Source of the DNA: a virus
Taxonomy: Duplodnaviria; Heunggongvirae; Uroviricota; Caudoviricetes
Direction: 5' to 3' (one strand)
DNA length: 18,808 nucleotides
IMG/VR virus record: IMGVR_UViG_2531839477_000015
Coordinates: 1 to 18,808 of that record
Shown here: positions 3,709 to 15,586 of the stretch, in pieces
Layout of the letters: every line of letters starts with the position of its first letter
Position numbering within the stretch: the stretch's first letter is position 1
The notes under the pieces: model-generated
What the model was told of the DNA's origin: nothing
Seen by the model: only the letters and a program-made list of their open reading frames with translations
Database searches by the model: none
Translations under genes and position numbers: made by a program

Positions 3709-4230
3709 TCACTCTCCTTTGATGCGAATGCCTGTTGCAATGCTGTTTATGATGCTGTCAGTGCATGGGGTAGAAAGCTGGGCATCTCCAGCAATTTTCA
3801 TGACCTCAACATCTGCATATCGAATACCGAGGTGTATCAGACCGGCTATGCCTGACTTAAGCCGAGCATTTTCCATAAATAGAACCTTTGCCCGCTGTTT
3901 TTCTGCTTCAAGCTCAACTCTCAGCTTCCCTACCGTTAGCGCAATCTCCTCGTTCTCCTGGTCGCGAGATTTGATGTATTGCTGGTTTCTTTCCCGTTCA
4001 TCCAGCAGCGCCTGCACTACTTCAGGGTTGAAAGCTGCGATATAACGAGCGTTGTTCTCTGCGTTGTTCTGTCCATCAAAGCCGGTCCATTTGATAACGT
4101 CTTCACATCGTTTATCACCAGGTGTATGCACCGCATATGTACCAGTACCAGACGAAATAAATGCGACCCATTCACCCTGTGTTGCCAGTTGCGCCGCCTC
4201 ACGCAGTGCCTGATAGTCAATCTTGCTCAC
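3709..4230 (-). CDS. Ead/Ea22-like protein
   Basis: GTG start at 4228-4230 with AAGGAGG 6 nt upstream; N-terminus SKIDYQALREAAQLATQGEW typical of Ead/Ea22-like prophage proteins; coiled-coil middle. Confidence 0.65.
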   Translation of the reverse strand: MSKIDYQALREAAQLATQGEWVAFISSGTGTYAVHTPGDKRCEDVIKWTGFDGQNNAENNARYIAAFNPEVVQALLDERERNQQYIKSRDQENEEIALTVGKLRVELEAEKQRAKVLFMENARLKSGIAGLIHLGIRYADVEVMKIAGDAQLSTPCTDSIINSIATGIRIKGE

Positions 4231-8341: not shown

Positions 8342-8370
8342 AAAAAAATTGCCCTCACATTGGAGGGCAA
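8342..8370 (-). terminator. Intrinsic terminator (tL-type) on the minus strand
   Basis: Minus-strand RNA UUGCCCUC-CAAUGU-GAGGGCAA followed by UUUUUUU; stem 8351-8356/8363-8368, U-run from plus A-run 8342-8348. Confidence 0.6.
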
Positions 8371-9143: not shown

Positions 9144-9449
9144 TCAATCGTAATAAGCTGGAATTGATTTTCCGCGTTGCTTCTGGCGGCCTGAACAAGT
9201 CACACCCATTTCACTGCGTGGCTTGCGGTAGTAAATACGGTTCTGTTTACGCTCGACTTCTTCTGCCTTCTTGCAGCGAAGGCTTCCGAGTGATGCTGCT
9301 TTATCTGCTCTGACGCAACCAGAGAGCTTTAGCGCAATTTTTCGTGCCAGTCGCTGCTCTTGCATTGCCTGTTCACGTTGATCCTGTCTGCGTGCTCTGC
9401 GGCGATTTCTGGCGTTATCGTCAGCCAGATATGTAATGACTACTGTCAT
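9144..9449 (-). CDS. N: Antitermination protein N
   Basis: N-terminal arginine-rich motif NARNRRRARRQDQREQ and C-terminus KPRSEMGVTCSGRQKQRGKSIP matching lambda N (...KPGERGITCSGRQKIKGKSIP); GGAGG 5 nt upstream; nutL lies in its leader. Confidence 0.85.
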   Translation of the reverse strand: MTVVITYLADDNARNRRRARRQDQREQAMQEQRLARKIALKLSGCVRADKAASLGSLRCKKAEEVERKQNRIYYRKPRSEMGVTCSGRQKQRGKSIPAYYD

Positions 9450-9557
9450 GTTGACCTCCGATGATTGACTTTGGCGGTGACGCGCCGGGTGCTTATCTTC
9501 CGGTTGCCGTCGTGCAGCTGCACTTCACGTCACCCCAAAACCAACTACTCTTTGGTT

Positions 9558-9598
9558 CCCGCATTTCGGCGGGACAATCCCATCAATGTTAAAGAGCC
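9558..9598 (-). promoter_or_regulatory. nutL (boxA GCTCTTTAACA + boxB hairpin CCCGC-CGAAAT-GCGGG)
   Basis: Read on the minus strand: boxA at plus 9587-9597 and boxB at plus 9558-9573; the boxB 16-mer is identical to the one downstream of cro. Confidence 0.7.
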
Positions 9599-9644
9599 TG
9601 CCAATATGTTCCGTTTGGCTACCAAACGTCCTGCTGATGGCTAA

Positions 9645-9673
9645 AGAATACTGTAGGTATTTTATTGTGTAAA
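9645..9673 (-). promoter_or_regulatory. pL promoter (putative)
   Basis: On the minus strand: -35 TTTACA (plus 9668-9673), 17-bp spacer, -10 TATTCT (plus 9645-9650); overlaps the two operator palindromes. Confidence 0.5.
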
Positions 9674-9731
9674 TACCCAAGGTATTTATTTTTGATGAAA
9701 TAATGATAAGCAAATGAATACAAAGGATATT
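9646..9731. promoter_or_regulatory. OL operators (2 clear + 1 degenerate site)
   Basis: AATAC-N5-GTATT at 9647-9661 and 9672-9686 (the latter a perfect 17-bp palindrome AAATACC-CAA-GGTATTT); weaker AATAC-N5-ATATT at 9717-9731. Confidence 0.6.
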
Positions 9732-9817: not shown

Positions 9818-10186
9818 TTAGTCAGCGAAGGTTAAGACGAGAATTACCTTAATGATATCTGCTACAACAGACACGGCCATAGATAAACCAAAGACAATCC
9901 AAGCCATATAGATGTCTTCACTACCATCGTATAGAGTTCCGTAATCACTGGTGTAAGGCGTAAATGTCGCGCCTTGATACAACAGGTATAAGCTTGAACC
10001 ATAGAGGATAAATGCAGATATCCCTTGTATTGCTATGATCACTAGAATCATGAAACGAGCTGATCTATGCGCCCAAGCCTGGCTTATTTTTTCTGATAGA
10101 GATTTCGCAATAAAAGCATGCGCTAAGCCGTAAATTGTCGAGATTGCCAACATCCCAAAAAAGCTTGCTATAGCGGTTCCAACCAT
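9818..10186 (-). CDS. Small polytopic membrane protein in the rex position (downstream of cI)
   Basis: Start trimmed to ATG 10184-10186 (MVGTAIASFFGML...) with AAGGGG upstream (the track start is TTG); three or four hydrophobic helices; no recognised family. Confidence 0.65.
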   Translation of the reverse strand: MVGTAIASFFGMLAISTIYGLAHAFIAKSLSEKISQAWAHRSARFMILVIIAIQGISAFILYGSSLYLLYQGATFTPYTSDYGTLYDGSEDIYMAWIVFGLSMAVSVVADIIKVILVLTFAD

Positions 10187-10203
10187 AATCGCCCCTTGCG
10201 TGA

Positions 10204-10920
10204 TCAAACCAGCCTTAGTTTTGTCTCAATTGCAACGCCTATAATCTTGCAGTTTCCATTGATTGGCACGAGAGGCCATGCAGGATTAAGTCCCTTGAGG
10301 TATTTATTTCCGCCGTCGATTATCAGCTTCTTGAATGTTGCTTCGTTAGAGTCAGAAAGTTTTGCTATGACCAAGCTGCCGTTGATCGCCTCCCTTCCGG
10401 TATCGAAAAGAACGAATGTTCCCTCTGGAATGCTTAACCCAACCGGTGCCGTCATTGAATCACCTTCCACTTTAAGCCAGAACGCATTACCTTGAATATG
10501 CGCGTCAGACTCAAGCCAAACATCTATGTCTTTAATGGTGTATGGTTCGCATGCTTCACACCACGAGCCAGCCTGGATACTGCTTAACACCGGATACCTC
10601 TTTCCTGCTCTGTATTCCCCTGCATACCTTACGTTGGCATCGCTCTTAAGGCTTTCTGCCTGTTCTGCAACCTTGGCAGCAATTGACTGGCTAAAATCAG
10701 CAATTGAGACTTGCAACAGTCGTGCAAAACCAGATGCAACCTCAACGTTTAGCGCGTTTCTGCCATTAAGATAATGCCCTACCGCTCCTTGGGTGATACC
10801 CAGTTCATCCGCGATTGAGTATTGGGTTATCCCCAATTCTTTCTTTTTTGACTCATACAAAGCCTTAAGCCGCTTAGCGTCTTCGAGCTGTTCTGTCGTC
10901 AGTGATTTTTTATTTTCCAT
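10204..10920 (-). CDS. cI: CI-type prophage repressor (HTH + LexA/S24-like autocleavage domain)
   Basis: N-terminus LTTEQLEDAKRLKALYESKKKELGITQYSIADELGITQGAVGHY parallels lambda CI; C-terminal domain with conserved Ser/Lys context (WLKVEGDSMTAP ... TFKKLI); divergent from cro across the operators. Confidence 0.93.
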   Translation of the reverse strand: MENKKSLTTEQLEDAKRLKALYESKKKELGITQYSIADELGITQGAVGHYLNGRNALNVEVASGFARLLQVSIADFSQSIAAKVAEQAESLKSDANVRYAGEYRAGKRYPVLSSIQAGSWCEACEPYTIKDIDVWLESDAHIQGNAFWLKVEGDSMTAPVGLSIPEGTFVLFDTGREAINGSLVIAKLSDSNEATFKKLIIDGGNKYLKGLNPAWPLVPINGNCKIIGVAIETKLRLV

Positions 10921-10931
10921 AGCTTAATTCT

Positions 10932-10996
10932 AATAGCTAAGGTACTTAAACTAAAAATACCCTGAGTATTGATTGCTTTGAATACCTGTAGTATTC
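10932..10996. promoter_or_regulatory. OR operators (OR3-OR2-OR1) with divergent pRM and pR
   Basis: AATAC-N5-GTATT at 10956-10970 and 10981-10995, degenerate AATAG-N5-GTACT at 10932-10946; centre spacing 24-25 bp; possible leaderless pRM with -10 TAGAAT (plus 10927-10932) about 7 nt before the cI ATG. Confidence 0.6.
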
Positions 10997-10997
10997 T
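10969..10997 (+). promoter_or_regulatory. pR promoter (putative)
   Basis: -35 TTGATT (10969-10974), 17-bp spacer, -10 TATTCT (10992-10997), the same -10 hexamer as pL; overlaps OR1/OR2. Confidence 0.55.
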
Positions 10998-11026
10998 TTG
11001 TTCATGGTTAATAACGGAGAGTGCAT

Positions 11027-11221
11027 ATGATTCGAATGACACTTGCCGATTACGCCAAAATCCATGGACAGGCTAAAGCAGCCAGTGACTTTGGTGTAAT
11101 CCAGTGCGCTATCAGCAAGGCCATTCTGGCAGGCCGTAACATTATGGTTACGGTAAAGCCTGATGGCAGTGTGATTGGAGAGGAGGTTCGTCCTTTCCCA
11201 AGCAACAAGAAAAACAAATAG
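11027..11221 (+). CDS. cro: Cro repressor
   Basis: [33 protein letters not shown]...[13 protein letters not shown] parallels lambda Cro (…YQSAINKAI…EEVKPFPSNKK); ATG 11027 with ACGGAGAG upstream. Confidence 0.85.
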
Positions 11222-11227
11222 TAACAC

Positions 11228-11270
11228 CGCTCTTTAACAGTCATGGTCCTCATTCCCGCCGAAATGCGGG
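11228..11270 (+). promoter_or_regulatory. nutR (boxA CGCTCTTTAACA + boxB CCCGC-CGAAAT-GCGGG)
   Basis: boxA 11228-11239 matches the boxA consensus; boxB hairpin 11255-11270; located 7 nt after the cro stop. Confidence 0.75.
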
Positions 11271-11329
11271 AATACAACGCGCATCAGTTGGTGCGCATAA
11301 CTTCTTATTTGTTAAGGAAATACTTACAT

Positions 11330-11608
11330 ATGCAACTTACAAGTACTCGCAAGAAAGCGAATGCAATTACAAGCAACATCCTAAATCGAATTGCTGTACG
11401 TGGTCAGCGAAAGGTTGCTGATGCATTAGGGATCAATGAATCACAAATTTCGCGATGGAAAGACAGCTTTATCCCAAAGATGGCCATGCTTCTGGCTGTT
11501 CTTGAATGGGGAGTTGTTGATGATGAGATGGCGAGACTTGCTCAGCAGGTGGCATCGATTCTCACAAAAGAAAAACGCCCAGCTGTTGGTAGCAGTCTGG
11601 ACGCTTAA
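11330..11608 (+). CDS. cII: CII transcriptional activator
   Basis: Start trimmed to ATG 11330 (upstream AAGGAAATACTTACATATG matches the lambda cII initiation region as recalled); ...SQISRWKDSFIPKMAMLLAVLEWGVVDDEMARLAQQVASILT parallels lambda CII. Confidence 0.9.
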   Translation: MQLTSTRKKANAITSNILNRIAVRGQRKVADALGINESQISRWKDSFIPKMAMLLAVLEWGVVDDEMARLAQQVASILTKEKRPAVGSSLDA

Positions 11609-11668
11609 GCACACTGTGTTACGCCAAGTAACAGGAGTAATTATGCCAGGACAAACCAAGCAAGTAAA
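11567..11668 (-). ncRNA. OOP-like antisense RNA (putative)
   Basis: Minus-strand hairpin CGUCCAG...CUGGGCG + UUUUUCUUUU inside the cII 3' end (plus about 11570-11600), analogous to the lambda oop terminator; possible promoter -35 TTGTCA (plus 11687-11692) and -10 TTTACT (plus 11663-11668). Confidence 0.3.
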
Positions 11669-12047
11669 CACCGGCATAAAGGCCGGTGACAAGTTCGAAA
11701 CCGTATATCCATTTATCTTCGTATGCACAGATTATCAGTCTTATGACGGCAACGTGCATACCGATGAGCGCTGGATTGGCGGTTGTCACAAAAATTATGA
11801 GCCAGCCGATTGTGGTTATGGTGATCAGTGTTTTTACACCGCTGATGCTGAAGGAAAGAGAATTCTTGAGGTTCTGGCAGTGGTGGAAATGCCAGGCAAC
11901 TGGCAGCGCAGAATCATTTATTCGTGCCACCTCATAGAGCCTGAAGGCAAGGAGAGGAAAGGAAGGAAGGCTTACACAGTCACCGAATCAAGGTTTTTAA
12001 AAATGTCTACTGGTTACTTCGCTGATTACGAAGTAGAGGAGGCTTAA
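11643..12047 (+). CDS. Hypothetical Cys-rich protein (134 aa) inserted between cII and O
   Basis: ATG 11643 with AGGAG 5 nt upstream (the track ORF is over-extended into cII); Cys/His-rich segment [40 protein letters not shown]; no family recognised. Confidence 0.6.
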
Positions 12048-12193
12048 TGACAAAACCACTCAGTCCTTACCAGGACAAAATTCACAAACACATACTACGT
12101 GATCGCTTCCTGTCCAGCTTCAAGCAGCCTGGTCGATTCCGGGCTGAGTTGGAAAAAGTGAAGCTGATGCAGAAGGAGAAAGGTCATGAGTAA
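12047..12193 (+). CDS. Small ORF (48 aa), translationally coupled
   Basis: Not in the track. ATG 12047 overlaps the upstream stop (TAATG) with GAGGAGG 5 nt upstream; translation [48 protein letters not shown]; 3' end overlaps the O-like start. Confidence 0.4.
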
Positions 12194-15554: not shown

Positions 15555-15586
15555 AGGCCTGCAGGTAATCGCAGGCCTTTTTATTT
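15555..15586 (+). terminator. Intrinsic terminator (tR2-equivalent) after the replication genes
   Basis: Perfect 8-bp stem AGGCCTGC/GCAGGCCT (15555-15562 / 15571-15578), 8-nt loop, then TTTTTATTT. Confidence 0.8.

Follow-up and report, generated by a model that had tools for sequence, protein, structure and literature searches.

N is a largely disordered protein. The boxBs of lambda, read from its genome record (NC_001416; also PMC2724277), have the form GCCCU-GA(A/G)AA-AGGGC (GCCCUGAAGAAGGGC and GCCCUGAAAAAGGGC). Lambda N binds the GNRNA pentaloop in a GNRA fold, for which the U-A closing pair and the G at the start of the loop are both required (PMC12027372). The spacer of the lambda nut sites is the part bound by NusA, and the same source gives the reference sequences of the rrn boxA, UGCUCUUUA+ACA, and of the lambda boxA, CGCUCUUA (PMC2724277). 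The genome record of P22 reads GCGCU-GACAA-AGCGC at nutL and CCGC-C-GACAA-C-GCGG at nutR. The loop-closing position of P22 boxB-right has been described as '6C-12C' (PMC6023938), and the peptide of the P22 complex uses His7 and Arg11 to contact the C of GACAA, which is looped out (PMC12550061). In phi21 the four bases UAAC of the hexaloop CUAACC make a GNRA-like turn, next to which lies a non-canonical C·C pair (PDB 1NYB; PMC12550061).

The DNA analysed here is a stretch of 18,808 nucleotides from a tailed-phage record of IMG/VR (IMGVR_UViG_2531839477_000015), referred to below as the window. Its immunity region is about 97% identical to those of coliphages HK620, HK630, HK140 and mEpX2. The HK620 record (AF335538) annotates 'nutL; putative N-utilization leftward' and 'nutR; putative N-utilization rightward', with the feature sequences GGCTCTTTAACATTGATGGGATTGTCCCGCCGAAATGCGGGA and CGCTCTTTAACAGTCATGGTCCTCATTCCCGCCGAAATGCGGGAAT, and at both sites the window is identical to HK620 from boxA through the end of the hairpin. 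The records of HK630, HK140 and mEpX2 annotate the boxA part only, and the CUS-3 record labels the same stretch 'bsq5; boundary sequence'. Of 5426 complete Escherichia coli genomes, 501 (about 9%) contain the nutL module, as do 26 deposited phage records. The two hairpins are nutL and nutR of a common HK620-type lambdoid/P22-like E. coli prophage, and the sites are already known, the nut assignment having been made when HK620 was deposited in 2001. As a discovery the locus is of small significance, because sites annotated in HK620 in 2001 have been re-identified. The searchable literature yielded no experimental study of this N/boxB pair. A search of the window and four related loci at the Rfam gathering threshold gave no match, and Rfam contains no nut or boxB family.

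Our overall explanation, to which we assign a probability of roughly 0.9, is that the window carries two HK620-type N-utilisation sites whose boxB, which probably has a GNRA + C·U loop, would be recognised by the arginine-rich motif (ARM) of N.

Gene context and composition of the two nut sites

The surrounding genes are those of a lambdoid immunity region. On the leftward side a pL promoter-like site, TTTACA-17-TATTCT (9645..9673, minus strand), corresponds to the pL annotated in HK620, and the N antiterminator gene (101 aa) lies at 9144..9449 (minus strand). The codons of N residues 9-28 (ADDNARNRRRARRQDQREQA; 9366..9425, minus strand) specify the ARM that would bind boxB. Operator repeats are found at 9643-9687 and 10955-10999, and between them are a small membrane-like ORF (9818-10207, minus strand) and the cI repressor gene (10204..10920, minus strand; Pfam HTH_3 and Peptidase_S24). 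The rightward side begins with cro (11027..11221, plus strand; Pfam Cro), and cII (11330..11608, plus strand; Pfam Phage_CII) is the first gene 3' of nutR. nutL is situated between pL and N, about 40 nt downstream of the promoter and 120 nt upstream of the gene, and its boxA begins about 40 nt into the leftward pL transcript. nutR is situated between cro and cII and starts 8 nt past the cro stop codon. Two intrinsic-terminator-like hairpins lie further along the operons, one with a T7 tract about 0.8 kb past N in the leftward operon (8349..8370, minus strand) and one with a T-run in the rightward operon (15555..15578, plus strand); both are candidate terminators for N-modified polymerase to read through.

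A preliminary description of this DNA had reported an identical 16-mer in the two leaders, each copy preceded by a boxA close to the consensus, and both observations hold and can be extended. The 16-mer CCCGCCGAAATGCGGG has exactly two copies in the 18.8-kb window, even with up to two mismatches allowed, at 9558-9573 (minus strand) and 11255-11270 (plus strand). Its chance expectation is 0.01, and two copies arose in none of 200 dinucleotide shuffles. The perfect identity between the nutL and nutR boxBs in fact covers 19 nt, TCCCGCCGAAATGCGGGAA, at 9556-9574 (minus strand) and 11254-11272 (plus strand). The 11-mer GCTCTTTAACA is also present in exactly two copies in the window (9587-9597, minus strand; 11229-11239, plus strand), each 5' of the hairpin and on the same strand, although by itself it is less significant, at least two matches with up to one mismatch being found in 14 of 200 shuffles.

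In nutL, the boxA core GCUCUUUAACA (GGCUCUUUAACA with the preceding base; 9587..9597, minus strand) matches the rrn boxA and falls inside the HK620 'nutL' feature. It is followed by a 12-nt spacer, UUGAUGGGAUUG (9575..9586, minus strand), the 5' part of which (nUnAUGG) is common to nutR, phi21 nutL and P22 nutL, and then by the boxB hairpin UCCCGC-CGAAAU-GCGGGA(A) (9556..9574, minus strand). In nutR, the same boxA core (CGCUCUUUAACA with the preceding base; 11229..11239, plus strand) is followed by a 14-nt spacer, GUCAUGGUCCUCAU (11240..11253, plus strand), and by a boxB hairpin that is the same as that of nutL over 19 nt (11254..11272, plus strand). All 11 positions of GCUCUUUAACA match the E. 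coli rrn boxA (UGCUCUUUA+ACA), including an extra U that is absent from the lambda boxA. P22 and phi21 also have an rrn-like boxA, so this form is the usual one among non-lambda lambdoid phages. From boxA into the start of the spacer, 18 nt are common to nutL and nutR at 89%, and the two divergent early leaders share, besides the operator repeats, solely this boxA-spacer start and the 19-mer. The two copies are inverted on the DNA and each reads from boxA to boxB along its transcript. The locus therefore has the parts by which a nut site is recognised, a 5' boxA of the form CGCUCUU(U)A with a stem-loop 12 or 14 nt further on, in two correctly placed and oriented copies.

The analysis establishes where the two sequences lie and how they are oriented, their predicted fold, the covariation of the stem, the co-variation of ARM and boxB and the identity with HK620; N binding, the roles of the Nus factors, the GNRA fold with its C·U pairing, and antitermination itself are inferred. 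In the scheme that we propose, the pL (leftward) and pR (rightward) transcripts would each carry boxA, a 12-14 nt spacer and the boxB hairpin. By homology with lambda, boxA would recruit NusB and NusE (S10), and NusA would make contact with the spacer. The boxB would present a G+C-rich stem of 5-7 bp, an invariant C-G pair, a non-canonical C·U and a GAAA tetraloop, and the N-terminal arginine-rich helix of N (about residues 9-28, core NARNRRRARR) would bind this hairpin. Through its phi21-like and lambda-like centre and C-terminus, N would hold NusA and RNA polymerase, making the polymerase resistant to terminators further along, for example the candidates at 8370-8349 (minus strand) and 15555-15578 (plus strand).

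Fold of the boxB hairpin and its loop

Energy folding, the check suggested in the preliminary description, gave a 6-7 bp stem and a 6-nt loop, CGAAAU, at both sites, with free energies of -10.5 and -11.2 kcal/mol. The corresponding z scores are -3.8 and -3.3, and none of 200 shuffles folded equally well. In the first set of loci collected, the 16-mer is invariant at 134 of 134 sites and its flanks vary. Wider scans returned, among the matches listed, 17 distinct hairpins with the same loop, including a nutR subfamily of the form GCUCCCAC-CGAAAU-GUCGGAGC; sites with this loop were also seen in Pantoea, Rosenbergiella and Serratia, again among the matches listed. A scan of genome contigs with a loose pattern gave mostly chance matches beside rrn-type boxA in unrelated bacteria, and about 8 true hairpin sites among the matches listed. 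Across the 17 hairpins the 7-bp helix is 93% paired, with compensatory changes at 4 of the 7 pairs, and pairing collapses to 36-66% when the 3' arm is slid along. Covariation scores 0.358, a value reached by 0/500 shuffles (0.227±0.028), with the signal coming mainly from the outer pairs and from a few divergent Enterobacterales loci, since there is hardly any variation in the four inner pairs. The C-G pair that closes the loop never changes, and the loop itself reads C(16/17)-G-A-(A/G)-A-U, with the final U in 17/17.

The boxB of the window can be written CCGC-C-GAAA-U-GCGG. It had been described as having a 6-nt loop, which is correct for the energy-folded form; nearest-neighbour models cannot compute C·U pairing or a GNRA fold, and their output is a plain 6-nt loop. 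As a structure, the loop is probably a GAAA tetraloop of the GNRA type flanked by a C·U mismatch, judging from sequence comparison. The G-N-R-A positions are conserved with R as A or G, so the loop sequence is compatible with a GNRA fold, of which a sheared G·A and a 3' purine stack are the marks. Two variants among the related loci support a GNRA tetraloop with a non-canonical flanking pair. In one (L205) the loop is CGAGAU, still GNRA, and the ARM is NSRNRRKARR. In the other (L211) the loop is AGAGAU, in which an A-U pair would close a GAGA tetraloop; the N gene of L211 looks frameshifted and the locus may be a decaying prophage, so this variant carries less weight. The GNRA + C·U reading is also supported by the pyrimidine·pyrimidine flank in P22 nutR and phi21 boxB, and by the ARM, which aligns best with the N-terminus of P22 N.

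The alternative of a true hexaloop, in which C and U stay unpaired and the ARM reads them directly, a mode that would differ from the way lambda and P22 recognise a GNRA fold, draws on the 6-nt loop that energy folding gives at both sites. Near-invariance of the C (16/17) and U (17/17) is also what would be expected of directly contacted bases, and in an ungapped register the ARM has no equivalent of lambda Trp18 or of the P22 His. We consider it unlikely, given that the four central bases are GAAA or GAGA, the canonical GNRA, and that P22 nutR and phi21 boxB, the latter in a solved structure, have a pyrimidine·pyrimidine beside a GNRA-like turn. Moreover, the ARM has a core that matches those of lambda and P22, whose ARMs bind GNRA folds. 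Under either reading, the solved structure of phi21 provides a precedent for a boxB loop of 6 nt.

The GNRA + C·U reading places the hairpin beside that of P22 nutR. The inner stem CCGC/GCGG is the same, the loop starts with GA and ends with A, and a pyrimidine·pyrimidine lies next to the loop, C·C in P22 and C·U in the window. The window boxB differs in being without the third loop base, the looped-out C, and in that U replaces the C flanking the loop on its 3' side. The stems of P22 nutL and nutR differ from each other, whereas those of the window are identical. A P22-type boxB has a GAYAA pentaloop in a GNRA fold from which the third base is looped out, whereas the window has only the four bases GAAA between the flanking C and U; the ARM, in contrast, is of the P22 type, being homologous to P22 N residues ~1-30.

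With phi21 the window shares a 6-nt loop built as Y-[4-nt GNRA-like turn]-Y, in which the flanking pair is non-canonical, a nearly identical boxA and spacer start, and an N body in which 67 of 69 residues are identical. The loop core of phi21, however, is UAAC (UMAC) against GAAA in the window, its nutL and nutR boxB stems are unlike each other and richer in A/U, and its ARM, GTAKSRYKARRAELIAERR, has only 6 of 32 residues in common with that of the window over the N-terminus. With lambda the window has in common the boxA-spacer-boxB layout, the same genomic positions, a GNRA-type loop core, the ARM core A-x-x-RRR-x-RR and a homologous N C-terminus. The differences are the GNRNA pentaloop of lambda, with its extruded fourth base and required closing U-A pair (PMC12027372), and Trp18 in the ARM, which stacks on the loop, the shorter boxA CGCUCUUA and the different stem (PMC2724277, PMC12027372); the loop of the window is C-GAAA-U on a C-G pair. 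The preliminary description had correctly given the lambda boxB as a 5-nt GAAAA/GAAGA loop on a GCCCU stem (NC_001416; PMC2724277) and had contrasted both stem and loop with it. Loop and stem are indeed distinct from lambda, but the boxB lies near P22 nutR and the GNRA core is kept.

N residues 1-32 constitute a P22-like leader and ARM, and residues 33-101 a phi21-type body, of which residues 62-98 can be aligned with residues 74-109 of lambda N as seen in 6GOV, a structure of the antitermination complex. The Pfam N_peptide match to this N falls below threshold (18.8 vs 27.9 bits). The N of HK620 (AF335538 / NC_002730) has the same ARM as the window, as do those of HK630, HK140, mEpX2 and CUS-3. 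The window N joins its phi21-type body to a lambda-like C-terminus, …GVTCSGRQKQRGKSIPAYYD, whereas the N proteins of HK620 and mEpX2 have a P22/H-19B-like end, …AAGYRKSKQLTAR.

The ARM core, NARNRRRARR, had been called divergent, which overstates the case, as it keeps the lambda/P22 core xA(R/K/Q)(N/T)RR(R/H)(A/E)RR, and the A-x-x-RRR-x-RR core is common to the window and lambda ARMs. The best alignment of the ARM is with the N-terminus of P22 N, with a score of 39 against a shuffle mean of 19.2±4.1 (0/500 reach it) in a local pairwise alignment with shuffle control, in a register that needs an indel of 2-3 residues. Features common to P22 N and the window N are MTV(V)ITY…NA(K/R)(T/N)RR(H/R)(E/A)RR. 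The residue aligned with lambda Trp18 is Ala28, and in the ungapped register the ARM is without an equivalent of lambda Trp18 and without the P22 His. In that register the P22 residues that hold the looped-out C are replaced by Arg and Gln, which would fit the absence of a looped-out base.

Taken jointly, and tentatively, these features may define an experimentally uncharacterised fourth N-boxB class, with a P22-like ARM on a true GNRA tetraloop closed by C·U and no extruded base. The ARM of such a class would be P22-like without the His and Arg that hold the looped-out cytosine of P22. If this class is real, it would test the need for an extruded loop base in NusA assembly. If the pair is orthogonal to the N proteins of lambda, P22 and phi21, it would stand as a natural intermediate between boxBs with a pentaloop and those with a hexaloop, and would provide an additional ready-made peptide-RNA tethering pair. 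The probable GNRA-tetraloop/C·U variant extends the series of model and tethering systems formed by lambda, P22 and phi21.

Co-variation of boxB and the arginine-rich motif

Relatives of the window N, collected from 80 IMG/VR loci, fall into two N-terminal classes, MTVVITYLADDNARNRRRARRQ… and MVTIVWKESKGTAKSRYKARR…, on an otherwise near-identical protein. The MVTIVWKESKGTAKSRYKARR… class is the true phi21 type, residues 8-29 of one of its members (L037) being identical to the phi21 peptide of PDB 1NYB. Of the loci with the window ARM, 67 extend at least 2 kb upstream, and 66 of these carry exactly one CCGAAATG hairpin before N on its own strand, plus another, still farther upstream, on the opposite strand; most of the at least 134 sites are near-identical E. 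coli prophage copies, so that the 66/67 counts related sequences and not independent events. The CCGAAATG hairpin is present in none of 10 phi21-ARM loci, which instead carry CUCAAC-CUAACC-GUUGAG at nutL and CACCU-CUAACC-GGGUG at nutR.

The stronger argument than these counts is the switch of small islands within homologous DNA. Aligned from nutL to N with the phi21-type loci, the window is 91-93% identical in the leader, boxA and spacer start, 36-40% in the boxB hairpin, 72-74% in the rest of the leader up to the ATG, 42-43% in N codons 1-33 (the ARM) and 88-96% in the N codons that follow. Up to residue 32 the window N agrees with that of L037 at 6 of 32 positions, and from there onward at 67 of 69. 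The boxB (36%) and the ARM codons (42%) are coupled islands of divergence within homologous DNA whose flanks are 91-96% identical, and the co-variation of ARM and boxB points to the boxB hairpin as the probable target of N. An unbiased IMG/VR query with the boxA-spacer sequence GCTCTTTAACATYGAYG, containing neither boxB nor N, returned at least five classes of hairpin, each paired with a distinct ARM class. In HK620 and mEpX2 the ARM and boxB of the window accompany N bodies that are P22-like. Together with position, orientation, gene context and the identity with HK620, this tracking of ARM and boxB supports the nutL and nutR assignment proposed in the preliminary description.

Three other explanations of the hairpins were weighed against these data. 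The CUS-3 label 'bsq5; boundary sequence' on the same stretch suggests that the 19-mer and 18-mer could be mainly DNA-level 'boundary sequences', that is, junctions for module recombination under no RNA selection. The module does flank many immunity cassettes and N bodies, and the 16-mer is invariant at 134 sites while the flanks change. A junction, however, needs no transcription-oriented hairpin with compensatory stem changes, nor any need to switch with ARM codons ~170 nt away across homologous DNA, and we regard a purely DNA-level role as highly improbable. The RNA and mosaic-joint roles are not exclusive, and nut sites may serve as mosaic joints too. Still less probable is that the hairpins are terminators or pause sites at the starts of the early operons (tL0/tR0-like) and not N-binding sites. 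Their stems are G+C-rich, with energies of -10.5 to -11.2 kcal/mol, and they lie early in both transcripts, but there is no U-tract 3' of either hairpin (GGGAACCAAAG and GGGAAUACAAC), the terminator scan flags neither, and a terminator would not co-vary with the N ARM. An identity as terminators was rejected on the first two of these grounds.

The least probable of the three is that the real N target is another leader hairpin, an outcome that had been named beforehand as one that would overturn the boxB assignment. Such hairpins do adjoin boxB, the candidates being GCGCAUCAGUUGGUGCGC at 11279-11296 and CCAAAGAGUAGUUGG downstream of nutL. The comparative check speaks against them, as they are not common to the nutL and nutR leaders, which have in common the boxA-spacer and 19-mer alone, and they do not follow the ARM class, the leader past boxB being 74% identical to that of the phi21 class. 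The two HK620-type nut sites, with boxB as the predicted target of N, are of modest value for the study of N-boxB recognition, as a natural example of ARM/boxB specificity switching as two small coupled islands within DNA that is otherwise identical.

The window ARM and boxB are found across at least seven nutL-nutR spacings, which indicates different immunity cassettes. In 32 of the window-ARM loci nutL lies 324-577 nt upstream, owing to small modules inserted in the leader. The same boxA-spacer scaffold carries at least three further uncharacterised ARM/boxB classes.

The nutL-to-N leader and its insertions

The leader between nutL and the antiterminator gene N is an insertion hotspot among relatives of the window, and boxA-boxB is intact in every relative that carries such inserts. 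Many prophages sharing the window's N have an insert of about 205 nt directly 5' of the N Shine-Dalgarno sequence (L003:2790-3000 and L010:2790-3000 in two related IMG/VR loci), which is absent from the window, where the equivalent position is ~9450-9460. Within the insert a boxA-like TGCTCTTTC or TGCTCTTCC is followed, 2-3 nt on, by a G+C hairpin that shows covariation (GCCCCTC-AGTTC-GAGGGGC in L003, CCCCGTC-TAATT-GGCGGGG in L010). It has no T-run and no match in Rfam; a small RNA or an additional nut-like element are two possible identities for it. In other relatives the leader carries inserts of other kinds. About 250 nt are inserted directly 3' of boxB in the L063 type (L063:2640-2900), while in the L045 type (L045:2700-3000) the leader is replaced and a small ORF with the C-terminal end ...ERKNK is found there.

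Further hairpin and arginine-rich motif classes

The same boxA-spacer also precedes boxB hairpins of other classes. In loci L208 and L216 the boxB hexaloop is CUAGCA; one such site lies on the plus strand at L208:5705-5770, with its nutR on the minus strand. The stems of this class are UUCCUCU/GGAGGAA at nutL versus CUCAUCU/GGAUGAG at nutR, the differences being compensatory changes. The arginine-rich motif (ARM) paired with it, DN(A/S)KNRYRARRAAKREQ, looks like a hybrid of the window class and phi21. Two further pairs of loci combine boxB UCUCCCG-CCCUUG-UGGGAGA with ARM SVSRRYLKRGELIAKRR (L207, L212) and boxB CUCCCGG-AUAGU-CUGGGAG with ARM ENSKTRKFKRTGEFF (L226, L236), again behind the same boxA-spacer. 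Both ARMs are unlike those of lambda, P22 and phi21, and we know of no characterisation of either hairpin/ARM class.

Features of the window near nutR and cI

Directly 3' of the nutR boxB the plus strand of the window carries a further hairpin, GCGCAUCAGUUGGUGCGC (11279-11296), with AUAACUUCUUAUUU after it, and there is no equivalent at nutL. Because the record of coliphage HK620 places tR1 immediately 3' of nutR, this hairpin may belong to the first region of termination or pausing that N overcomes. Between cI and pL, a hydrophobic ORF of 129 aa on the minus strand (9818-10207) occupies the same position as HK620 hkaS and lambda rexAB. Pfam gives no match for this ORF, which is probably a lysogen-expressed moron, perhaps with a role in exclusion. 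On the plus strand, cII and the replication gene that starts at 12186 are separated by an ORF of ~134 aa (11643-12047); since megablast similarity to HK620 and related phages stops at ~11580 of the window, this ORF is, on that alignment, a mosaic difference from them.

Variant and unusually assigned loci

L211 is the sole locus with A in place of the loop-flanking C (loop AGAGAU). Its nutL is on the minus strand (~4000-4120) with N downstream, and N appears to be split between two reading frames, of which one ends ...CLPQ and the other bears ...AAGYRKSKDIVTAR; this suggests a frameshifted, possibly decaying prophage. In about ten loci, including L101, L104 and L118 (IMG/VR contigs of 45-62 kb), TGCTCTTTAACA is followed by CCAAAGCAATTCGGATTCGAAATGTCTATATATG; these were recovered solely through the CGAAAT pattern. 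Their boxA fits the consensus, but no strong hairpin is evident 3' of it. Two short contigs of 4-5.5 kb, L342 from a MAG labelled Bacillales and L353 from one labelled Segatella copri, carry nutL/nutR and N of the typical enterobacterial kind though binned in unrelated MAGs, and probably represent binning contamination in public assemblies.
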